Positions 3,187 to 30,396 of a stretch of DNA of 32,000 bases are shown here, piece by piece (the first letter of the stretch is position 1; every line of letters starts with the position of its first letter). The notes beneath the pieces were generated by a model, which saw only the letters and a program-made list of their open reading frames with translations, made no database searches and was not told the origin of the DNA. Position numbers and translations under genes: made by a program. The DNA is taken from the NCBI GenBank assembly GCA_017609205.1, contig JAFCEL010000001.1:30001-62000 (forward strand). The letters are read 5' to 3'. This stretch comes from Candidatus Saccharimonadota bacterium. GTDB lineage: Archaea; Nanobdellota; Nanobdellia; Pacearchaeales; GW2011-AR1.

Positions 3187-3993
3187 TTAGATTAACAAAC
3201 TCCCTAACATCAACAAAGCAAAGATTAATACAAAATATCCGAAGTTAATCTTTTTTGAAATTTTCATTAATACAGAAATTGTTGCAATTCCAAAAGTGAA
3301 TGATGCAAGAATTCCTACGAAAGATGCGAGAGTTGTGATTTGTGCGAATTTGTTGAAATTAATGAAGATATTTCCGAGTAAAACAATTGGTAGGGACATA
3401 AGGAAACTTAAACGAAGCGCTGTTGTATCGTCGAATTTTCTCAGAAGCAAGGTAGAGATTGTAATTCCTGACCGCGACAAACCAGGAAGAGATGCAAGAC
3501 CTTGGGTGATTCCTAGTAAGATTGAGTCATTTTTTCTCAAGTGAATTTCTTTTCTCAGACCTTGTGATTTAATCTTAATTTGTAGGTAACCAGTTATCAA
3601 AAGAAAAATAGCTACGAAGAAAGTTATTGTTTTTCCGGTAAGCTCTAAGTGAGACTCAAAGGACTCGAGAGTTTTTATGATTGCAAGACCGATTGCCCCT
3701 GAAATTATCGTCGATAAAATCAGAAAATTCAAGATTTTTTTTGTTTCTAAATCTGACTTTCTATAGTTGAACAGAGATTTTATTAGTTTGTGAATATCTT
3801 TTCTAAAATAAACTATTGCTGCGAAGAAAGTTCCTAAATGCAAAAATAAAGCAATATGAAGAAGTTCTGACACTTTTGTTATCCCTAAAAAATTTGAATT
3901 AATAAAAGTGATAACTCCACTTGAACTTATGGGCAGCCATTCTGTTATTCCTTGAATTATTCCCAAGATAAATTGGATTATAATCTGATTCAT
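3187..3993 (-). CDS. uppP: Undecaprenyl-diphosphate phosphatase (BacA/UppP family)
   Basis: 268 aa polytopic membrane protein. It has the N-terminal GITEWLPISSSG motif and the SRSG motif typical of UppP. Confidence 0.88.
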   Translation of the reverse strand: MNQIIIQFILGIIQGITEWLPISSSGVITFINSNFLGITKVSELLHIALFLHLGTFFAAIVYFRKDIHKLIKSLFNYRKSDLETKKILNFLILSTIISGAIGLAIIKTLESFESHLELTGKTITFFVAIFLLITGYLQIKIKSQGLRKEIHLRKNDSILLGITQGLASLPGLSRSGITISTLLLRKFDDTTALRLSFLMSLPIVLLGNIFINFNKFAQITTLASFVGILASFTFGIATISVLMKISKKINFGYFVLIFALLMLGSLLI

Positions 3994-4082
3994 AACATGT
4001 TAAGAAATTGTGAATTAAAAATTTAACTAATCGACGATTTCTCGACGAAAAAGGAATACTTTATTTTGAGTCTAAATTTAAC

Positions 4083-9939: not shown

Positions 9940-12798
9940 TCAAATTTTCAAACTAATTATTTTTGAAATCCCGTCGTGCATGCTTATTCCATAAAGAGAA
10001 GTCGCATTAGTGATTATTTCATCGTTGTGAGTTATTATAATATATTGTCCTCTTCTCATGTATTTTTTTAGTAATCCAGCAAGTCTTGCCGAGTTTCTTT
10101 TGTCAAGTGCAGCATCTATCTCGTCAAGGACATAGAAGTAATAGGGATTTAATTCTTGTATTGCGAATATTAATGAAAGTGCAACGAGTGTCTGTTCCCC
10201 TCCTGATAAGGATTTCACGTCGAAATATTTTCCGTGTCCTGTTTTAACAACAATTCCAACTCCTCCTTCAAAGGGATTTTTCTTATTCTCAAGTTCGAGA
10301 AAAACATCTCCTTTTGAACTTAATTGTGCGAAATTACGAGAGAAAATCTCATTCAATTCCTTTAATGTTTTTAAAAAGGTCTTTTTTTTCTTTATGTCAA
10401 TTTCATGGATTATCTTAAAAATGCCTTCTTTTTCTTTTGAGATTATATCTACTTTCTCTTTAACGAGTTCATATTCTTTTTTAATTGAATCATAAACTTC
10501 TAAGGAGCGGAGATTTACTGTTCCTATCTTTGAAAAAATCTCCTGGGTTTTATTTAACTTTTTAAGAAGATTCTCTCGTGTGGTTTTTATTATCTCGATT
10601 TTTCCGAATTCAAGCATTTCTGTTTCAAGATTTCCTATTTCAGCATCAGTTTTTGCTTTGTCAATCTTAAGATTATTTATTTCTTGTTCAATATTATGGA
10701 TTTTATTTTTTTCATCTAATAGGTTTTTCTCATTCTCTCTTATTTTTATTTGATAGGAATCTCTTTCTGAAATTAAAGCCTGGAATTTTTCTGTTAATTG
10801 CTCTTCCTTTTTTCTTTTATTCTTAAGTAGGCTTTCTTTATTCATTATCTCTTCTTTTAAATAAGACAATTCTTCACCTAAGTCTTCTTCCTCCCTTAAA
10901 ATCTGCTTTAGGGATATTTTTGCTCTTTCAAATTCCCTTTGCTTGAAAGATATTTCAGAACTTATGTTTTCCTCGCTTCTCATTGAGATTTCCTGAACCT
11001 CAATTTTTAATGTTTCATATCTTTGCTCTATATTAGAATTCTCATCAAAGTCCTTCTCAAGATTTTTCTTTTTCTTTTCTAATAAGTTTATTTCTCTTTT
11101 GGCATCATTAATCTTTTCCTGAAGGGATTTTATTTGTGATTTCTTGTCATTTATATTTGAGATCTTGATGAAGTCAGACTCTCTTTTATTTATTTCTGCA
11201 CTTATGTCTTCTATTTCTCTATTCAAAATCTTTCTCTGTTCATAGAGACTATTCAATTTGATCTCTGCTTTGCGAATTTCTTCTGTAAGCGAATTGATTT
11301 TTGAATTTACTTCTTTAGTAATTTCGTCTATGTGGGATTGGGTTATTTTGCTTTTACAAACAGGACAAATGTCTATCTTTGAAATCTTATTTATGATTTT
11401 CTTTTGGTTCTCTGATTCAGACTCATTAATGTAACAGATCTTTTCTAAGTCTTTTTCTTTTTCATTTAATTCTTCTAAGAGCTCTTTTTTCTCTTTGAGG
11501 GATGATTTTAGTTTATTGAGCTTAGCCTCATCTGATCTCTCGTCGAATAACTCAAGCGAAATTGAGCGTATTTGCTTAATAAGAAATTCTGATTCAGAGG
11601 AATAATTTCTTAAAAGCTGTTTTTTGTCTTCAATTCTTTCCTTAATTGATTTTAATTCAGATTTAGTCATATAGAATTTCTTTCTTTCTTTTTCTAATCT
11701 TTCTAATTCTGTTTTTTTATGAGACAATTCTTCTTCTTTTTTAGCAGCTATTGGGGATTCTTTTTTTAGTTCCCTGATTATTCTTTCATCCTCTTTTATT
11801 TTTTTCTGGAGTTCTTGCTTGTTCCTAGAGTTCTCGGCAATTTTTCTTTCGCAATTTTCGAGTTTAACCCGCATACCCGCAAGCTCTGCACGGATATTTG
11901 CAATTTCCTGATTTAATTTCTCCTGTTCAAGTCCAGTTGATTCTTTAATTAGCTTATTAATTGAATTTATCTTGGATTCGCAGTTTCTGATTTGAAATTC
12001 TATCGCAAGAATAGATTTCTTTAACTTTTCAATTTCTTTGGTTTTTTTGAATATTTCTTTTGAAATGTTTTGTTCTTCTTTTTTCTTTTTGTTTAAGTCA
12101 TAAAAGATTATGCTCGCTTTATACCTTTTAATATCTTTTTCGAGTTTTTTGTATCTAAGTGCTTGCTGGCGTTCTTTTTCTAAATTATTTAGGTAAGCAG
12201 TTCTCTCCCGCAAAATTGCTGTTACTTCTTTTAACTTCTCTTCAGTTCTTTCAAGTTCTCTTAAGGATTTTTCTTTTCTTGATTCATATATTGAAATTCC
12301 TGATACTTCCTCAATTATCTTTCTTCGTTCATCAGGTTGCATTCTAACAAAATTTTGAATCTCTCCTTGGAGGATTATATTAAATCCATTAGGGTCTATT
12401 CCTGCTTGTGCTAAAAGCCCGAGAATATCTTGCCTTGTTCTTGTTTCGTTATTTATTTTGTAAATACTTTGGCCGTTTTTCTTAAGAATTCTTTTTATTG
12501 AAATCTCATCGGTCTCTAATGAAAATGTTCTTTTCGAATTGTCAAATACAATTTCTACGAGGGCTTCTTTTGCAGGAGGGGCTACTTTACTTCCTAAAAA
12601 AATTAAATTACTTGCCTTTGCTGCTCGCATTGATTTAATACTTAAACGCCCGAGGACGAAACATAGAGCATCAGAGATGTTTGATTTACCCGACCCATTT
12701 GGCCCTAAAATGACATTGATTCCTCGAGTAAAAGGGATTTCTGTTTTTCTTACAAAACTTTTGAATCCATACATCACCAATTTCTTTATGTAAGTCAT
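9940..12798 (-). CDS. smc: SMC-like chromosome-organisation ATPase with SMC heads, continuous coiled coil and a central CPVC zinc-hook motif (no hinge domain)
   Basis: N-terminus: GFKSF...ILGPNGSGKSNISDALCFVLG and NIILQGEIQNFVRMQPDERRKIIEEVSGI. C-terminus: LSGGEQTLVALSLIFAIQ...YVLDEIDAALD...IIITHN. It is 952 aa, versus about 1150-1200 aa for canonical SMC. Residues 478-481 are CPVC (nt 11356-11367). Confidence 0.9.
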   Translation of the reverse strand: MTYIKKLVMYGFKSFVRKTEIPFTRGINVILGPNGSGKSNISDALCFVLGRLSIKSMRAAKASNLIFLGSKVAPPAKEALVEIVFDNSKRTFSLETDEISIKRILKKNGQSIYKINNETRTRQDILGLLAQAGIDPNGFNIILQGEIQNFVRMQPDERRKIIEEVSGISIYESRKEKSLRELERTEEKLKEVTAILRERTAYLNNLEKERQQALRYKKLEKDIKRYKASIIFYDLNKKKKEEQNISKEIFKKTKEIEKLKKSILAIEFQIRNCESKINSINKLIKESTGLEQEKLNQEIANIRAELAGMRVKLENCERKIAENSRNKQELQKKIKEDERIIRELKKESPIAAKKEEELSHKKTELERLEKERKKFYMTKSELKSIKERIEDKKQLLRNYSSESEFLIKQIRSISLELFDERSDEAKLNKLKSSLKEKKELLEELNEKEKDLEKICYINESESENQKKIINKISKIDICPVCKSKITQSHIDEITKEVNSKINSLTEEIRKAEIKLNSLYEQRKILNREIEDISAEINKRESDFIKISNINDKKSQIKSLQEKINDAKREINLLEKKKKNLEKDFDENSNIEQRYETLKIEVQEISMRSEENISSEISFKQREFERAKISLKQILREEEDLGEELSYLKEEIMNKESLLKNKRKKEEQLTEKFQALISERDSYQIKIRENEKNLLDEKNKIHNIEQEINNLKIDKAKTDAEIGNLETEMLEFGKIEIIKTTRENLLKKLNKTQEIFSKIGTVNLRSLEVYDSIKKEYELVKEKVDIISKEKEGIFKIIHEIDIKKKKTFLKTLKELNEIFSRNFAQLSSKGDVFLELENKKNPFEGGVGIVVKTGHGKYFDVKSLSGGEQTLVALSLIFAIQELNPYYFYVLDEIDAALDKRNSARLAGLLKKYMRRGQYIIITHNDEIITNATSLYGISMHDGISKIISLKI

Positions 12799-13288: not shown

Positions 13289-13573
13289 ATGAATTTAAAG
13301 GAATTAAAAAAGAGATCTGATGGAAAAATAGTTCTTAATGAGAAATTAGTTGAAGGACAGAAAATTGGAGAGATTGAGGTTAAAGAACCTTTAGAAATAA
13401 TTCTCTCAAGCAAAGGTAATTATGATATTTTAAAGTATAGAGAACGACAAATTCCTGAAGATGCTGAGGTTTATTCTGTGGAAGAAATTGGGACTGTTAT
13501 TAGTGATTCTTTTCAGATGAATATTACAGATTATAAATTATTTAAAGTAGAATTTTATAAAAATATCAACTGA
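13289..13573 (+). CDS. Hypothetical protein (94 aa)
   Basis: Intact ORF with an ATG start. No motif was recognised. Confidence 0.5.
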   Translation: MNLKELKKRSDGKIVLNEKLVEGQKIGEIEVKEPLEIILSSKGNYDILKYRERQIPEDAEVYSVEEIGTVISDSFQMNITDYKLFKVEFYKNIN

Positions 13574-13609: not shown

Positions 13610-14275
13610 TCAAAACAATTTTTTCTGTTTCAGGTTTTTAGATGCTTTTTTCCAAGTTATCCATGTTTTTCTGAATATGCCTTCGTCTTTATACTTATTT
13701 GCATATTTTGAGATGAATCTCTGAGTAGCAGGATCAGAAGTATAACCAGAGCCTATTTTTTCCCCATACTTTTTTTTGAGTTTGTCTATTTCTTTTTCTC
13801 TTGTACTTTTCGCTAGAATAGACGCTGCTGAGACAGCTATATGGTTTTTGTCTGCCTTATGTTCACAAATTATTTCGAGATTTGAAAGGTTTTTTATTTT
13901 TGTTTTTAGAAAATCACTCCATTTGATTATTGATGGAGATGGGCAATCAACAATGACTTGTATTTTATTGTCTCCCTTATTTAGTTTATTAATTATTTTT
14001 GCACAAGCAAGTGCTTCAAGTTCATTAAGTTTTGTTCCATCTCCGTTGTTCTTGTCTATCTCATTAGGAGATATTAGGATTGTTTCAAAGCATTCTACAA
14101 TCTTTTTTATTTTTTCAGCAAAGAATTCTCTTCTTCTTGGAGTTAAATCTTTAGAGTCTTTTACACCTAATTTTCTTAGTTCTGTTTCTTGTTCTTTATT
14201 GATTAGGACCCCTGCCAGAATCATTGGTCCGATTACAGGTCCCCGACCTGCATCATCAATACCTATCTTTAACAT
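13610..14275 (-). CDS. rnhB: Ribonuclease HII
   Basis: 221 aa. It has the N-terminal GIDDAGRGPVIGPM catalytic motif plus the DSK and SAASILAK blocks typical of RNase HII. Confidence 0.93.
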   Translation of the reverse strand: MLKIGIDDAGRGPVIGPMILAGVLINKEQETELRKLGVKDSKDLTPRRREFFAEKIKKIVECFETILISPNEIDKNNGDGTKLNELEALACAKIINKLNKGDNKIQVIVDCPSPSIIKWSDFLKTKIKNLSNLEIICEHKADKNHIAVSAASILAKSTREKEIDKLKKKYGEKIGSGYTSDPATQRFISKYANKYKDEGIFRKTWITWKKASKNLKQKKLF

Positions 14276-17107: not shown

Positions 17108-17653
17108 ATGCACATTAAGAAAGTTAAAACAGCGATTAAAATAGGGGATTTTATTTTAAGGCAAAATCATAGAAATAAAATAGACATAAAATATTTGCCT
17201 AACATTAGCAAAGATGTTCTTAATGATGATGTAGCAAGGATTTATCTTTTTGTTGTTGATGGAATTATTAAAAAAATTGGTGGCTCGTCTGGGAAGGGGG
17301 GCATAAAAAACACTATGAATTTTTATGTTTCTGCTATGACAGGAAGTCCAGGAGTTCCAAGATTTGTTATTCATTTACTAATTGCAGAAGCATTAGAAAA
17401 AGGTAAGAAAGTAGAATTATATATGATAACTTCTCCAAAAGTTTTAGCGACAGTTAATGGATTATTTGGTTCTAAAAAGGTAGAAATAGCAAGTTTTAAA
17501 GAAATGGAAGATTTTTGTAAGTCAGATTATTATTCTATTGAACATCGTTATCCTGATTGGAATTTCCAGGAAAATCACGAACCTTATCCTGTGGAATTAG
17601 CACAAAAACACAATGAATATCATAAGAACAGGTTAAAGAACAAGAAGAAATAA
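17108..17653 (+). CDS. Hypothetical 181-aa protein; candidate small restriction endonuclease (weak GIY-YIG-like pattern)
   Basis: It is convergent with the MTase with zero intergenic bases (stop at 17651-17653, MTase stop at 17654-17656). The segment RIYLFVVDGIIKKIGGS resembles GIY...YIG, with later FKEMEDF and DWN as possible catalytic Glu and Asn. The functional call is speculative. Confidence 0.35.
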   Translation: MHIKKVKTAIKIGDFILRQNHRNKIDIKYLPNISKDVLNDDVARIYLFVVDGIIKKIGGSSGKGGIKNTMNFYVSAMTGSPGVPRFVIHLLIAEALEKGKKVELYMITSPKVLATVNGLFGSKKVEIASFKEMEDFCKSDYYSIEHRYPDWNFQENHEPYPVELAQKHNEYHKNRLKNKKK

Positions 17654-18700
17654 TTATTTTTTTGGAGGACAGAAAATTAAAATTTCATGAGAACTCTTGA
17701 TATTTCTGTTAGTTCTGTTTTCTATTCTATTTTTTCCTATTCTTGTTTCTCCCTGCCCCATAGTATATTGCCACGAAGGAAAAAATTGCTGGAAATCTTT
17801 GTAATACTTTCTAATTGTTGGACAATTATTATAAGATAAAATAAACCCCCCTTTATGTTTTTTTAATAAATCTCTTAATTCTTCATGAGGAAAGCCATTG
17901 TGATGAACAGGAATATTTCTCATTGGATAAATCCCTTTAAACATTTTTGAATCAGGTCCAATATAATAAGGGGGGTCTAAATACATAAAATCATTAGGAT
18001 ATTTTTTCATAACTTCTCTAAAATCTGCCTGTTCAACTTTAAGATTTTTTGGATTAAAATCTCTTATTTTTTCAATCATTCTTTTATATCTTTTTTTATC
18101 AAGATAGATTTTTGAACTCCACCCCATAAATCCAGGTCCATAAGATAAATTAAAATTATAAACAAAATAAACAGCAAGAGTTAGGGGGTCTAATTTAATT
18201 TCTTTTTTCCAAACTTTATTTAATATCTTTCTTATTCTTTCAAATTTTTCTTTTGTTGGTTTTAACTTCTTTAATTCCTCATAAAGAAGTTTTGGATTTT
18301 CTATTTGAAATTTCCAATAATTACATAGAATATCAAAAATATCAAAACCAATAACTTCTAAATCCAAATATTTACTCATAGTAATTTCAACAGAACCGCC
18401 CCCAAAAAATGGAGAAACTACTCTTTTAACATCATTAGGCAATAATTCTAAAATATGCCCCACTGCCAAACTCTTCCCTCCTGCATAACGAATAGGAGAA
18501 ACAGGAACTCTTTTGTATTTATTCATACTTTTTGGATAAGTTTTACTAAGTATGGATTTTAGAAATGCTTCTTTTTTTTCTTTTAATTCAATTTCTTTTT
18601 TTGTTAAATCTAATTGTTTTTCCATTTCCTCTTTAAATCTGTCTCTTTTTACTTTTTTAATAATATTCTTCATTTTATAAACTTTGGTTTGAAAGTTCAA
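17654..18700 (-). CDS. Dam-family (D12 class) N6-adenine DNA methyltransferase
   Basis: It has YAGGKS, SAM motif I SPFFGGGSVE, and catalytic motif IV DPPYY in the alpha-group order. The more likely start is ATG 18671-18673 (MKNIIKK), 1 nt after the transposase stop. The 18700 start would overlap the transposase by 26 nt. Confidence 0.88.
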   Translation of the reverse strand: MNFQTKVYKMKNIIKKVKRDRFKEEMEKQLDLTKKEIELKEKKEAFLKSILSKTYPKSMNKYKRVPVSPIRYAGGKSLAVGHILELLPNDVKRVVSPFFGGGSVEITMSKYLDLEVIGFDIFDILCNYWKFQIENPKLLYEELKKLKPTKEKFERIRKILNKVWKKEIKLDPLTLAVYFVYNFNLSYGPGFMGWSSKIYLDKKRYKRMIEKIRDFNPKNLKVEQADFREVMKKYPNDFMYLDPPYYIGPDSKMFKGIYPMRNIPVHHNGFPHEELRDLLKKHKGGFILSYNNCPTIRKYYKDFQQFFPSWQYTMGQGETRIGKNRIENRTNRNIKSSHEILIFCPPKK

Positions 18701-19613
18701 TAAGTGCTAACCACTTATTAGGATTGTTTAATTTTTCTTTAAGTTCAGGACAAGCCAGTTCATAAGGACATCTTTTAAGAGTCTGGTGTTTAGTGATAAA
18801 ATTGTAATAAATTTCTAAACCCTTCATAATTGCTTTTGCAGAATCAACAGAGCCGTGAAATCCTCTAAAAGTTTTTGTTCTTTGTCTGATATTATTATGT
18901 AACCTTTCAATCATAATATTGAATCCTTCTCCTCTTGAAGCATTAACTTGATTATGATAAACATTAACTCTATGTGTTTTATTTGAAAATCCATAAACTT
19001 TCTTAATAGCATTAGGATAAGCAAGAAGTCCGTCAGAAGTTATAATCTTAACCTGTTCGCCTGTTTTTTGTTTTGCTTTTTTCAATACAGATTTTAATTC
19101 TTTTTGCTCCCTCGCTTTAACATATTCAGCAGAAACTATAAATCTTGTTTTGCTGTCTATTATATCAATAAACCAATTTTTATCAACACCTCTTTTAGTA
19201 TGATACTTTCTCCTATGATATTCCATTTCGTCAATTTGTATTTCTTCTCCAACCTGAAGTTTAAGTTTGTCTGTGAATTGAGAAATGATTTTTGAGTATT
19301 TTACAATCCATTTGTAAATAGATTTATGTGAAGCATTATGAGGATAAAATGCTCTTAAATGCTCTTGAACTTTTCTTGTAGAAACTCCTCTATAAAATAA
19401 GTCAATAGAAAGAGTAATTTTTTTAGGATTATTTCTCATTCTATAAAATGCAGTTCTTTTTATGAATTTCTTATTGCAAGATTTACAAAAATATCTTTGT
19501 TGCTTTCCATGAGCTTTTGTTTCAAATGTTCCGCGTTTAACTATTTCTTTGCTTTTGCAATGAGGACACGAAATATTTTTATAGTTCTTTTGCTTATTAC
19601 TTTTGTATTTCAT
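18675..19613 (-). CDS. DDE transposase with N-terminal zinc ribbon (IS6/IS240-like by motif layout)
   Basis: It has a zinc ribbon (CPHC...18 aa...CKSC) and a DDE-like triad: QIDEMEY, IITSDGLLAYPNAI, NIMIERLHNNIRQRTKTFRGFHG. The C-terminal pattern FRGF..S...A...L.G.E..YNF resembles IS6-family ends. The ATG at 19611-19613 is preferred over the TTG at 19661. Confidence 0.82.
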   Translation of the reverse strand: MKYKSNKQKNYKNISCPHCKSKEIVKRGTFETKAHGKQQRYFCKSCNKKFIKRTAFYRMRNNPKKITLSIDLFYRGVSTRKVQEHLRAFYPHNASHKSIYKWIVKYSKIISQFTDKLKLQVGEEIQIDEMEYHRRKYHTKRGVDKNWFIDIIDSKTRFIVSAEYVKAREQKELKSVLKKAKQKTGEQVKIITSDGLLAYPNAIKKVYGFSNKTHRVNVYHNQVNASRGEGFNIMIERLHNNIRQRTKTFRGFHGSVDSAKAIMKGLEIYYNFITKHQTLKRCPYELACPELKEKLNNPNKWLALIELSNQSL

Positions 19614-19639
19614 TTGATGTCGCAATTGGGTGGAATACG

Positions 19640-19655
19640 GGGAGCTTCGGCTCCC
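19640..19655 (-). other. GC-rich hairpin GGGAGC-CGAA-GCUCCC (mRNA sense) in the transposase leader
   Basis: It is a perfect 6-bp G/C-rich stem with a 4-nt loop in otherwise very AT-rich DNA. It lies 15 nt downstream of the in-frame TGA at 19671-19673 and about 26 nt upstream of the ATG at 19613. Confidence 0.5.
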
Positions 19656-19670
19656 ATTCAATTTATTTCT

Positions 19671-19781
19671 TCATATATAAGCAGATGTTCCGAATGGTTT
19701 TACTTCAGCCTGGATAACTTCCTCTATTCCTAACTTATCTAACTTCCCTTTAACTTCTTTTTTATTATCTTCATTTTTCAT
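19671..19781 (-). CDS. 36-aa ORF MKNEDNKKEVKGKLDKLGIEEVIQAEVKPFGTSAYI, AbrB/SpoVT-like fragment upstream of the transposase
   Basis: It is ATG-initiated and in the same frame as the transposase ORF, separated from it by a single TGA. From memory, the V-K-P-F-G-x-S strand motif resembles small archaeal transposon-associated AbrB-like proteins (DUF2080-type). The ORF appears truncated. Confidence 0.3.
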   Translation of the reverse strand: MKNEDNKKEVKGKLDKLGIEEVIQAEVKPFGTSAYI

Positions 19782-19823
19782 ATATATAATAGATATATGA
19801 ACTATTTAAATCTTTCGATTATA

Positions 19824-19857
19824 GTAATTTACTATATATTTATAAAGGTAATTTACT
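19824..19857. promoter_or_regulatory. Two direct GTAATTTACT repeats (19824-19833, 19848-19857) in the divergent promoter region; candidate RHH operator
   Basis: Exact 10-mers lie 24 bp apart, between the divergent transposase-leader ORF and the RHH gene, and overlap TATA-like TATATATTTATAAAG. Confidence 0.4.
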
Positions 19858-19874
19858 TTTATACCTATAAGAAA

Positions 19875-20045
19875 ATGCCTGCTAAAAATCCATTTGGTTT
19901 CAGTTTGCCTGATAAAGAAGCAGATTTATTAAGAAAAGCCATAAAAAAATATAAGAAATTTAATATTTCACAAACAGAACTAATAAGAAAAATTATATGC
20001 TCTTGGCTTTTTGCCAATAGACTTCAAATAGAAAATTCAAAATGA
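19875..20045 (+). CDS. Ribbon-helix-helix (CopG/Arc-like) DNA-binding protein, 56 aa
   Basis: MPAKNPFGFSLPDKEADLLRKAIKKYKKFNISQTELIRKIICSWL shows a beta-strand/helix/helix pattern typical of RHH proteins. The internal ATG at 19875 is preferred over 19797, whose N-terminus is low-complexity promoter sequence. Confidence 0.55.
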   Translation: MPAKNPFGFSLPDKEADLLRKAIKKYKKFNISQTELIRKIICSWLFANRLQIENSK

Positions 20046-23530: not shown

Positions 23531-23600
23531 TGAAAACAAATAGTGTTTAGTTAATATAGTATAATTAGAATCCTTGATTTAAAAAATTAATCGAAATATA

Positions 23601-23672
23601 TGGTCCCACCAGGAGTCGAACCTGGATCTGCTCGGTGTAAACGAGACGTCTTAGCCGTTGGACTATGGGACC
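23601..23672 (-). tRNA. tRNA-Val (anticodon TAC)
   Basis: The reverse complement folds as acceptor GGTCCCA/TGGGACC, anticodon arm TCTCG-TTTACAC-CGAG, T arm CCAGGTTCGACTCCTGG, discriminator A. Confidence 0.88.
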
Positions 23673-23722
23673 ACAGTCTCAATTTATATTATTCTCAATC
23701 AATTAAAAAGCTTTCCATAGAA

Positions 23723-24055
23723 TTATTTTTCTTTAAGTTCTTTTTCAATGCTTCGCATTTCTTTTTTTATTCTTTTTCTTCTTTTTGCTCTGCTAAGCTT
23801 TGTAACAGACACCATTATTATGATAACAAAAATTGTGATAATTACTGCAGAAATGAAATTGTAAAGATATGCTTTCTCAAGGAGTCCCATTTGTTGAAGA
23901 TAATGGTCAAGTGCTCCTTTTATCGCATCTCTCCATACTAATGCAATTATAAAACCAAAACTCGCAATTACTGGTCCGCTGACATCGTTTCTTATTTCTT
24001 CTTTTATTGCATATAATTCTGCACGGATTTTTTTAAATGAATCACCTCTATTCAT
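23723..24055 (-). CDS. Small membrane protein (110 aa, two TM helices, basic C-terminal tail)
   Basis: It has two hydrophobic segments (VIASFGFIIALVW and FISAVIITIFVIIIMV). The antisense ORF 23600-23941 overlaps tRNA-Val and is rejected. Confidence 0.6.
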   Translation of the reverse strand: MNRGDSFKKIRAELYAIKEEIRNDVSGPVIASFGFIIALVWRDAIKGALDHYLQQMGLLEKAYLYNFISAVIITIFVIIIMVSVTKLSRAKRRKRIKKEMRSIEKELKEK

Positions 24056-28453: not shown

Positions 28454-28963
28454 ATGTCAGAAAAAGACAAGATATTTTCAAGTGGAATTAAATGGGTTGG
28501 AATTGCGAATTGGAGAGGTTTCTATAAGTTCTGTTATGATTTTCTGATGGAAGAAACAGGAATGGATTGGATTCAGGAGGAAAAATACGAAGAGAAATTA
28601 AACGGAAATCAGAAAGATATTGACGTTAAATGGGTTGGTACAAAGAAATTAACAGACTATTTTAGAGTATGGATAGAAGTGTCGTTTGAAATAAGGGATT
28701 TAGAAGAGGTTGAGATAATTAAAGATGGGGAAAAAACAAAATCTAACAAAGGAAGATTCAAAATTTCTGTTAATGGGTTTCTTGAAAGAGATTATCAAGG
28801 AAAATTTGAGAGAAGCGCGTTTAATAAATTCTTAAGAAGTATCTATGAAAAATGGGTAATCCCCTCGAGAATCGACCAATTTGAAGGAAAAATTTTTGGG
28901 GACTGCGACGAATTCGTTAGTCAGGCAAAAGCATATCTGAACATGGAAGGACAACACACTTAA
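28454..28963 (+). CDS. Hypothetical protein (169 aa)
   Basis: Intact ORF with ordinary amino-acid composition. No motif was recognised. Confidence 0.55.
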   Translation: MSEKDKIFSSGIKWVGIANWRGFYKFCYDFLMEETGMDWIQEEKYEEKLNGNQKDIDVKWVGTKKLTDYFRVWIEVSFEIRDLEEVEIIKDGEKTKSNKGRFKISVNGFLERDYQGKFERSAFNKFLRSIYEKWVIPSRIDQFEGKIFGDCDEFVSQAKAYLNMEGQHT

Positions 28964-29019: not shown

Positions 29020-30396
29020 ATGAAAAAAATAGTTTTATTTTTATTAGGGTTTTTTATCATCCTGCAGTTTACATCAGCAATTAATTTAAAGGTTGAAAAA
29101 ATAAGCCAAAATGAAGTAATGATTGCAGATGTTAATAAACAAACTGTTTTCAATCTAAGCATAACCAATCTTAATGGCGATGATTATATGGAATTCTACA
29201 ATCTTTTAGGATTTCAAATGTTCCCGATTGGTTCAACGCCAATAAAAAAAGGAGAGACAAAACAGATTCAGCTAAAAATTTCTCCAATAGGAAAAATAAA
29301 GGAGAGGGGATATTATACTCTGCAATATTTTATAAAAGGAAGTAATGATTCTGAGATAAAACAAGAACTAACCTTTAAGATAATCGAACTGAAAGACGCT
29401 TTTGAGGTGGGTTCAGAAGAAGTTAATCCGAAAAAGAATACAATTATAGTTTATATAAAAAATAAGGAGAAAATAGACTTTGAAGGATTGAAGGTTAAAT
29501 TCAAATCAAACTTCTTTACAGAAGACAGGGAATTCGAGCTTGGTTCTGAAGAGAAAAAAGAGTTTGAAATTCAGTTACAGAGCGAAGATTTAAAGAAATT
29601 GTCCGCAGGTTTTTATACTCTTACTGCAGAAGTTGAATATGCAGGAGCAAGAACAGAGGTTGAGGGATTTATTAAATTTTCAGAAAGAAGTGATTTAAAT
29701 GTCTCGGAGAGAGATTCTGGATTTTTTATAAGCACCCATACTATAACAAAAACAAACCAGGGGAATGTGAATGTTGAAACAGTTACTTCTATAAGAAAAA
29801 GTATTTTTTCTTCTATCTTCACAACATTAAATCCTGAACCAGACATTGTAGAGAGAGAAGGGCTTGCTTTGAATTACATCTGGGAGACAGAATTAAAACC
29901 TGGTGAAGTTTTTGAAGTTAAAATTAAAACTCATTGGATTTTTCTTTTTCTTGCTATCTTCTTCATAATAGTAATTGCAACTTTTTTAAGAAAACATCTG
30001 ACAACTGACTTGGTTTTGAAAAAGAAAATAAATTTTGTCCATTCAAAGGGAGGGGAATTTGCCCTTAAAGTTTCTATATTGGTTAATGCGAGGAGATATT
30101 TAGAGAATGTTAATGTTGTTGACAAGCTCCCTCTGTTGGTAAAAATTCATCCAAGGTTTGGAGGGGATATTCCTACAAGAGCCGACGAGAAAAAACGAAG
30201 AGTCGAATGGAATTTTGAAAAACTTGAGGCAGGTGAGAGAAGAATCATCTCATATATAATCTATTCAAAAATTGGTGTTCTTGGAAAATTCGCACTTCCT
30301 CCAACAACTGCGATTTATGAAAAAGACGGCAAGATTAAGGAGACTGAATCAAACAAAGCGTTTTTTATTGCTGAGGAAAGAAAGAAGGAAGAGTGA
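29020..30396 (+). CDS. Signal-peptide-bearing membrane protein with beta-sandwich-like ectodomain and one internal TM helix
   Basis: It has an N-terminal signal (IVLFLLGFFIILQFTSA), an internal TM helix (WIFLFLAIFFIIVIATFL), and repeat-like beta-rich segments. Confidence 0.6.
   Translation: MKKIVLFLLGFFIILQFTSAINLKVEKISQNEVMIADVNKQTVFNLSITNLNGDDYMEFYNLLGFQMFPIGSTPIKKGETKQIQLKISPIGKIKERGYYTLQYFIKGSNDSEIKQELTFKIIELKDAFEVGSEEVNPKKNTIIVYIKNKEKIDFEGLKVKFKSNFFTEDREFELGSEEKKEFEIQLQSEDLKKLSAGFYTLTAEVEYAGARTEVEGFIKFSERSDLNVSERDSGFFISTHTITKTNQGNVNVETVTSIRKSIFSSIFTTLNPEPDIVEREGLALNYIWETELKPGEVFEVKIKTHWIFLFLAIFFIIVIATFLRKHLTTDLVLKKKINFVHSKGGEFALKVSILVNARRYLENVNVVDKLPLLVKIHPRFGGDIPTRADEKKRRVEWNFEKLEAGERRIISYIIYSKIGVLGKFALPPTTAIYEKDGKIKETESNKAFFIAEERKKEE

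Follow-up and report, generated by a model that had tools for sequence, protein, structure and literature searches.

The hinge of SMC proteins has been assigned roles in binding DNA, in opening the ring and in communicating with the heads. In the canonical Smc of Smc-ScpA(B) (TIGR02169/TIGR02168; Pyrococcus structures PDB 5XEI, 5XNS and 4I99), this hinge is a domain of ~200 residues that is recognized by Pfam PF06470 and carries the motif GDLxExSGAMxGG. Rad50 proteins carry a zinc hook (Pfam PF04423), in which a CPxC motif sits at the turn of an antiparallel coiled coil. The two modules have been exchanged in the laboratory. Bacillus subtilis Smc with its hinge replaced by the Pyrococcus furiosus Rad50 zinc hook showed near-normal arm-arm association and normal growth (PMC5344682), and fission-yeast Rad50 was functional with the hinge of MukB or of B. 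subtilis Smc, but not with its two cysteines mutated (Tatebe et al. 2020, PMC6969161). Among natural proteins, the ASRPs (ClsN/coalescin, Sph1 and Sph2; NF045487) are archaeal members of the SMC superfamily that have a zinc hook and branch apart from SMC as a clade of their own (Yoshinaga et al. 2022, PMC9389158). Variants described as "hinge-less" in marine Actinobacteria are of SMC descent, have lost the hinge and have no CXXC (PMC12153180, 2025). We found no description of a natural zinc-hook protein of the SMC clade in the full-text literature, a coverage that does not extend to subscription-only papers.

Here we describe an archaeal gene whose product has SMC heads and a Rad50-type hook. 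The gene lies at 9940..12798 (minus strand) of a 32,000-nucleotide stretch, hereafter the window, which spans positions 30,001 to 62,000 of contig JAFCEL010000001.1 (GenBank assembly GCA_017609205.1; labelled Candidatus Saccharimonadota bacterium, but placed by GTDB in the archaeal Pacearchaeales). Its open reading frame (ORF) starts with ATG and comprises 952 codons plus the stop. The architectural and mechanistic core of our reading, to which we assign a probability of about 0.8, is that this 952-aa protein is the condensin-type Smc orthologue of a clade of tiny-genome DPANN archaea, with the hinge and adjacent coil swapped for a Rad50-type hook. The protein is a bona fide SMC, and not a Rad50, an ASRP/ClsN or an ancestral intermediate. 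It shares with canonical Smc the heads, ATPase motifs, neck/joint, arm length class and rnhB-smc gene context, but has a CPxC loop of ~12 residues, flanked by Rad50-like coil, where canonical Smc has the hinge. Only the hook is held in common with Rad50, and the heads and the Mre11 neighbour are not. ASRPs also have a zinc hook instead of a hinge, a likeness that extends to Rad50 and so does not discriminate, but their heads differ and the ASRP model is ~590 aa long. The engineered chimera, Smc(Zh), has the same architecture but is a laboratory construct, whereas the protein described here (hook-SMC) is natural, fixed in an archaeal clade and conserved in length. What is new is a natural counterpart of Smc(Zh) that is fixed across a DPANN clade, rather than a new class of machine or a missing link.

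SMC heads and a hook-like apex

The hook-SMC has the heads of an SMC ATPase. The N-terminal half of the head (aa 1-168; 12295..12798), which has an alpha/beta head fold in the structural model, contains the Walker A motif GPNGSGKS (aa 32-39, nt 12682-12705) and the Q-loop LQGE (aa 143-146, nt 12361-12372). The C-terminal half (~aa 796-952; 9943..10413) contains the signature LSGGE (aa 864-868, nt 10195-10209), the Walker B/D-loop YVLDEID (aa 889-895, nt 10114-10134) and the H-loop ITHN (aa 922-925, nt 10024-10035); these and all other parts of the gene are on the minus strand. Residues K38, S39 and Q144 of the N-terminal half and S865, G866, G867, E868, D892, E893, D895 and H924 of the C-terminal half are invariant in a 26-sequence alignment with identity down to 37%, and the ATPase is therefore under selection.

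Comparisons of sequence and structure place these heads with SMC. The whole protein matched Pfam SMC_N (170 bits) and scored 522.4 bits with NCBIfam SMC_prok_A and 516.3 with SMC_prok_B, compared with 135 for ASRP and 59-94 for the Rad50 models. When the head fragments were scored separately, aa 1-213 gave 256 bits with SMC_prok_A versus at most 60 with Rad50 and 38 with ASRP, and aa 739-952 gave 188 bits with SMC_prok_B versus at most 32 with Rad50 and 32.5 with ASRP. The best matches among PDB sequences were Pyrococcus and Bacillus Smc heads, with up to 358 bits, and Rad50 heads reached ~63 bits. A full-length AlphaFold2 model based on the 26-sequence alignment (mean pLDDT 80) was compared with the PDB by Foldseek, which ranked condensin Smc4 and Pyrococcus Smc head/coiled-coil/joint structures first (target TM 0.71-0.90 for the Pyrococcus structures), with Rad50 not appearing before rank 11. 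We note that the SMC scores of 522.4 and 516.3 bits miss the NCBIfam equivalog cut-offs, which are 729.4 for TIGR02169 and 567.35 for TIGR02168. This shortfall is probably owed at least in part to the missing hinge segment. The best stretch of the whole protein aligned aa 3-475 with model positions 1-482, and the last 214 residues aligned with positions 955-1164.

Between the two head halves, no hinge was detected. SMC_hinge (PF06470) did not match the 952-aa protein even at E up to 10, whereas the nearest hinge-type relative (P0150), included as a control, did match it. The hinge glycine motif was absent from every hook-type protein recovered when 1.84 billion representative proteins were searched exhaustively, and the AlphaFold2 model contains no globular middle domain. 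Instead, helices at aa 169-474 and 487-826, with a few short breaks, flank a 12-residue loop (aa 475-486; 11341..11376) that contains the CPVC motif (aa 478-481, nt 11356-11367). DSSP assigned helix, 12-residue loop with a beta-bridge, and helix in both this model and a model of the 124-residue mid-fragment (pLDDT 93.8). The protein has six cysteines in all, and two of these, C478 and C481, form the mid-point CxxC and are putative zinc ligands.

The arms on both sides of this loop correspond to those of canonical SMC proteins. The ascending, N-terminal strand (aa 169-474; 11377..12294) consists of model helices 169-208, 220-345, 350-416 and 424-474, and the descending, C-terminal strand (~aa 487-795; 10414..11340) is formed by helices from residue 487 on. 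In BLAST alignments with nine hinge-type SMCs, the N-side arm was collinear with an offset of 0-3 up to ~aa 455, and collinearity resumed on the C side at aa 482 with an offset of +189 to +205. These offsets imply that ~190-210 residues of hinge and adjacent coil correspond to ~27 residues in the hook-SMC. The protein is 952 aa long in 82 of 120 orthologues, and 100 of 141 proteins have 446 residues from Walker A to CPxC and 386 from CPxC to LSGGE. Longer variants extend both strands together (453/397, 454/399 and 461/403), which fits an antiparallel coiled coil with its turn at CPxC, although the covariation of arm lengths is only moderate (r ~0.55-0.6) and most sequences are identical in length.

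The CPxC motif is the most constant feature of the arms. All 120 orthologues of 66-100% identity have it at an equivalent position, every complete ~950-aa relative down to ~40% identity in the exhaustive search has it too, and it is invariant across 129 distinct hook contexts. From G289 to A715, a span of ~425 arm residues, C478, P479 and C481 are the only invariant columns of the 26-sequence alignment. Judged from these alignments, conservation of the mid-point CPxC is far beyond chance.

The sequence around the motif resembles the Rad50 hook specifically. A profile of 29 diverse apex fragments was compared with all PDB sequences, and its top three matches were 6ZFF (1.6e-10) and 1L8D (1.8e-10), both P. 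furiosus Rad50 zinc-hook structures, followed by the human RAD50 hook (5GOX; 2.6e-4). The 29-sequence profile was needed for this result, as a single-sequence phmmer search of the PDB with the 111-aa apex fragment returned only noise (BRCA1 RING, haemagglutinin coils). Pfam Rad50_zn_hook matched aa 461-508 (11275..11418), scoring 25.2 bits when the whole protein was scanned and 29.5 bits for the fragment, and individually matched 23 of the 29 diverse fragments. The register over the 129 hook contexts, counted from the first cysteine, was C0, P1, a hydrophobic residue at 2, C3, K4, I7, T8 (124/129), E10 and H11 (124/129). The shared register is CPxCxxx[IL]TxEH, for which the P. furiosus Rad50 counterpart is CPVCGRELTDEH. 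Overall, the likeness to the P. furiosus hook covers ~100 residues and includes the exact register of six positions. Among NCBIfam models, the isolated mid-fragment scored 23 bits with ASRP, 16-22 with four Rad50 models (in each case at the model's own mid-point) and 9 with SMC. Foldseek ranked Rad50 hooks as the top three matches to the hairpin model (6ZFF_B, TM 0.77, 2.3 A).

A sequence-only reading of this DNA had proposed much of this anatomy. Its motif strings were all found where it had placed them, including CPVC at aa 478-481. The NCBIfam, PDB sequence and Foldseek comparisons agree with its view of the heads as SMC-like, with scores that favour SMC over a position within Rad50, and the hidden Markov model (HMM), glycine-motif and model checks confirm that a globular hinge is absent. 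The resemblance it saw between CPVC and the Rad50 zinc-hook apex is borne out by the profile, Pfam and register comparisons, and the CxxC proved to be invariant among orthologues.

Descent from hinge-type SMCs

Relatives recovered in the exhaustive search fell into two clean classes. Hook-type relatives are ~946-991 aa long (one has 1,023 aa) and align with the query in one piece. Hinge-type relatives are mostly ~1,070-1,200 aa long, with some of ~800-960 aa, carry GDLxExSGAMxGG and align in two pieces. The mid-point CxxC is absent from the hinge-type class, in which one protein has a CxxC within an insertion in the P-loop. A neighbour-joining tree (Kimura correction, 200 bootstraps) was built from head residues only, with 109 proteins and 332 columns, and rooted on bacterial SMCs. 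Hook-type proteins and four short relatives formed one clade in 187 of 200 bootstraps, with no hinge-type sequence inside it. The successive sister groups of this clade were all hinge-type, and one of them includes two proteins from metagenome-assembled genomes (MAGs) of Woesearchaeota.

The genomic context of the hook-SMC gene is shared with hinge-type relatives. The gene upstream of smc on the same strand is rnhB, encoding RNase HII (13610..14275, minus strand; Pfam RNase_HII, 167 bits), and this neighbour is conserved. The RNase HII family occurs in 26 hook-type loci, and in nearly every one of those listed its gene lies immediately upstream of smc in the same orientation; it has the same position next to a hook-SMC of 37% identity. 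In a Woesearchaeota locus with a hinge-type smc, RNase HII is likewise encoded upstream on the same strand, ~900 bp away, and two small genes separate the pair. The rnhB-smc region of these DPANN archaea is a conserved cluster of genes for replication and segregation.

As read from these sequences, the simplest explanation is a single exchange of the hinge for a hook of Rad50 type (or ASRP type) in the SMC orthologue of one DPANN lineage. The head-only tree and the shared synteny both mark this as a derived replacement and not an ancestral intermediate. The sequence-only reading had called the protein an architectural hybrid of SMC and Rad50 and suggested a bearing on how the two families diverged. 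The hybrid holds in the sense of SMC heads with a Rad50-type hook, but the bearing on family divergence is not supported, since the tree and synteny point to a late replacement. The reading also took no account of the ASRPs, archaeal zinc-hook proteins that had been described before and to which the hook-SMC does not belong.

The hook type is not confined to one assembly. An identical protein (P0001) is encoded on JGI metagenome contig Ga0366832_1006191, where the genes are arranged as in the window, and a GTDB scan recovered the hook type in ~30 species-level MAGs, which carry the label Pacearchaeota, Woesearchaeota, Nanoarchaeota or Nanoarchaeia. An assembly artefact was considered and ruled out, given that dozens of independent contigs encode the protein. 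In databases these proteins are entered as hypothetical or under the name "chromosome segregation protein SMC", and a pipeline that takes the hinge as the criterion for SMC would overlook them. A survey of SMC arm lengths gathered SMC proteins through hinge alignments and Rad50 proteins through hook alignments (PMC5344682, Methods), a design in which natural hook-SMCs would have been missed or pooled with Rad50.

Four short proteins outside the window, P0140 (804 aa), P0141 (779 aa), P0143 (801 aa) and P0146 (781 aa), have intact SMC heads, no hinge and no cysteine in the mid-region, with each arm strand ~75 residues shorter. The P0140 and P0146 clusters come from MAGs labelled Pacearchaeota. 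By rough estimate, the arm length of these bare-apex SMCs is near the 238-aa mode of natural SMC arms (Burmann et al.). They nest inside the hook clade and so look like secondary losses of the zinc hook. The hinge-less SMCs of marine Actinobacteria, which are bacterial, resemble these four proteins rather than the hook-SMC.

Mode of action, partner genes and alternative explanations

The mode of action that we propose starts from features with direct support (SMC heads, intact ATPase motifs, lack of a hinge, a CPxC hairpin apex, homology to the Rad50 hook and hinge-type descent) and extends to a kleisin partner and a cellular role, both of which we infer. Each chain would fold back on itself as an antiparallel coiled-coil arm of ~300 residues per strand, with the CPxC loop and the split ABC ATPase head at opposite ends. 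In the manner of Rad50, a single Zn2+ would join two chains permanently at the apex, with C478 and C481 of both chains as its four cysteine ligands, and the heads would engage and disengage with ATP, as in any SMC. The dimer would work in chromosome organisation and segregation, most probably as a ring closed by a ScpA-type kleisin. A natural hook design of this kind is plausible because B. subtilis Smc with the P. furiosus Rad50 hook and the reciprocal Rad50-hinge chimeras work.

That the hook-SMC is the sole condensin-type SMC of its host, acting with a kleisin, seems to us slightly more probable than its opposite. We regard as evenly balanced the wider proposal that the only SMC complex of an entire archaeal lineage is hinge-less and uses a Rad50 dimerisation module captured by domain swap, and that some descendants later lost the zinc ligands and shortened their arms. 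If the hook-SMC is the only SMC and is hinge-less, nature has already done the Smc(Zh) experiment, and neither DNA binding by the hinge nor a hinge gate would be essential. The constant 446/386 arm geometry would then be a natural data point for the tuned-arm model. The engineered Bacillus chimera was taken to mean that nothing but stable dimerisation matters, and a natural hook-SMC, clade-wide and strongly conserved, would lend this view independent evolutionary support. It would also offer structural biologists a minimal SMC. The finding further shows the zinc hook to be a portable module that has moved between branches of the SMC superfamily, which matters for the origins of ASRP/ClsN-type proteins.

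We searched for partner genes in the window and in related loci, the latter examined as 10-kb flanks of smc rather than as whole genomes. Pfam matched ScpA, ScpB, Mre11 or Rad50 in none of 27 window ORFs (overlapping shadow ORFs were left out), consistent with the sequence-only reading, which had noted no scpA/scpB or mre11 adjacent to the gene. Pfam also found no ScpA among the conserved neighbour families of smc, and a six-frame scan of smc loci for the archaeal ScpA motif DPWD[IV] revealed no kleisin. Alignment by hhalign of 110-420-aa ORFs from the window and loci L001-L041 with a 4-sequence MGII ScpA alignment reached a maximum probability of 3.9%. No kleisin was recognised among the ~260-aa unannotated proteins near smc in L042 and L045 or near smc on divergent hook-SMC contigs, and the tests run gave no kleisin likeness among the five window ORFs that lack a Pfam match.

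Hinge-type loci of MGII and other Euryarchaeota contain a ~335-aa protein directly downstream of smc (L034, 13967-14977; L037, 3852-4856; L039 and L040, 13915-14910), and in L034 a clear ScpB comes next. In the MGII loci this protein is in the ScpA position; it has no Pfam match at E<=0.01 and contains a DPWDVD motif, which we take to be typical of archaeal ScpA. Since Pfam missed this protein, a Pfam-based absence of ScpA is unreliable in divergent archaea. The failure to find a kleisin near smc is weak evidence because of such misses, because several archaeal orders have smc and scpA at separate places in the genome (PMC7055376) and because only flanks were covered.

Several observations weigh against our reading. 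The search for a kleisin was negative for the window and for the 10-kb surroundings of smc in ~35 related loci, and the complex may therefore work without one. Zinc binding and dimerisation through the hook are predicted from homology to the Rad50 hook, and the structural models are of monomers only. The Foldseek E value for the hairpin is not significant (best 0.016), which is usual for helical hairpins, and we treat that match as supporting evidence only. The whole-protein Pfam match to the hook is barely above threshold (25.2 bits versus a gathering score of 24.3). The tree was a neighbour-joining tree of 332 columns without Rad50 or ASRP outgroups, families that were excluded by HMM scores. 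Lastly, the four short members of the hook clade have no cysteines at the apex, so the hook is not indispensable to every member.

The alternative that survives best, although we consider it unlikely, is that the hook-SMC is a specialised paralogue, acting as a Rad50-like DNA tether or without a kleisin, while a canonical hinge-type Smc-ScpA is encoded elsewhere in the genome. Two SMC types coexist in some archaea (PMC8665677), and no ScpA, ScpB or other partner was seen near the gene in any locus, as such a paralogue would allow. Separation of smc from scpA is, however, found in several archaeal orders anyway (PMC7055376). The gene also lies in the rnhB-smc setting that is seen around the hinge-type smc of Woesearchaeota, and its products form a single clade nested in hinge-type SMCs, as predicted if the orthologue was replaced in situ. 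The GTDB scan returned one locus per assembly, which likewise speaks against a paralogue, though the search patterns used are blind to distant paralogues.

A second alternative, which we consider improbable, accepts the SMC orthologue but not the intermolecular hook. The CPxC could stabilise the hairpin turn, bind a partner or another metal, or bridge complexes, with dimerisation achieved elsewhere, for example through arm-arm contacts and head engagement. The short clade members, which keep intact heads without apex cysteines, show that an SMC of this lineage can do without the motif, and the case for the hook is built from sequence homology and monomer models. In Rad50, however, this motif forms a Zn(Cys)4 dimer (PDB 1L8D, 6ZFF), and the extended likeness to the P. 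furiosus hook over ~100 residues, with its six-position register, argues that the same would apply here. That the two cysteines and the proline never differ among more than 129 variants is also what is expected of metal ligands.

We retain the reading of an Smc orthologue dimerised by a Rad50-type hook, and two further explanations that would assign the protein to another family are very improbable. A divergent Rad50 or SbcC working with Mre11 in double-strand-break repair would account for the zinc hook at the apex and for a length of ~950 aa, close to the 872-895 of archaeal Rad50 models. This explanation is effectively refuted, as the Rad50 NCBIfam scores of 59-94 bits compare with cut-offs of 700-1087 and with ~520 for SMC, both head halves favour SMC by more than 150 bits, ten SMC structures precede Rad50 in Foldseek, and the arms are collinear with SMC arms. 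Mre11/SbcD is usually encoded beside rad50 in archaea (see also PMC2288612), whereas no Mre11-type phosphoesterase adjoins the hook-SMC gene in any locus, and no Mre11 or metallophosphoesterase match was obtained in the window or the annotated related loci. Membership of the ASRP family (ClsN/Sph), which has zinc hooks (PMC9389158) and gave the third-best NCBIfam family score and the nominally best score for the isolated mid-fragment, can be dismissed to the same degree, because 135 bits is far under both the cut-off of 300 and the SMC scores and falls mostly in coiled coil, the head halves score 38 and 32.5 bits for ASRP versus 256 and 188 for SMC, the model has 593 positions versus 952 aa with full-length SMC arms, and the published ASRP clade is separate from SMC whereas the hook clade nests in hinge-type SMCs.

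Neighbouring genes and other observations

The window is AT-rich, with a G+C content of 27-37%, and the genes around smc are archaeal housekeeping genes. They encode S7, aEF-2, aEF-1alpha, a DnaG-type Toprim protein, PCMT, RNase HII, D-aminoacyl-tRNA deacylase, L10e and the thermosome. These surroundings and the conserved synteny rule out an SMC-like protein of a defence system such as Lamassu or Wadjet, which we had considered as a candidate. A gene for a DnaG-type Toprim protein is often found within a few kb of smc in loci that have rnhB (L002-L033, L042 and L045-L047).

A gene for a D12-class N6-adenine DNA methyltransferase and one for an IS-like DDE transposase with an N-terminal zinc ribbon adjoin each other at 17654-18700 (minus strand) and 18675-19661 (minus strand), overlapping by 26 nt. 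The G+C minimum of the window, 27% at 18001-20000, is in this region, and the pair at 17654-19661 may be a mobile insertion. Five window ORFs had no significant Pfam match: 13289-13573, 17108-17653, 23600-23941, 28454-28963 and 29020-30396, all on the plus strand. Two of them, the 169-aa ORF at 28454-28963 and the 458-aa ORF, each had one Pfam match far below threshold (E 0.08 and 0.03, respectively). A homologue of the 169-aa ORF, with 43% identity, is encoded near smc in L045, a divergent hook locus.

A 196-aa GGDEF diguanylate-cyclase protein (Pfam, 146 bits) is encoded a few kb from smc in five hook-type DPANN loci, for example at 3421-4011 (plus strand) of L009. Proteins with this domain are not known to be common among archaea.

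Some SMC proteins of both classes are much longer than the rest. The hook-type proteins P0121 and P0129 (~1,480 aa) have an insert of ~530 residues in the Walker A P-loop, right after residue 37. Hinge-type proteins of ~1,700 aa (P0163, P0168, P0169, P0172, P0174, P0178, P0187 and others) likewise have a P-loop insert of ~530 residues after residue 37. The insert of P0121 matches Intein_splicing and LAGLIDADG_3, which identifies it as an intein that carries a homing endonuclease and interrupts the P-loop of the SMC.

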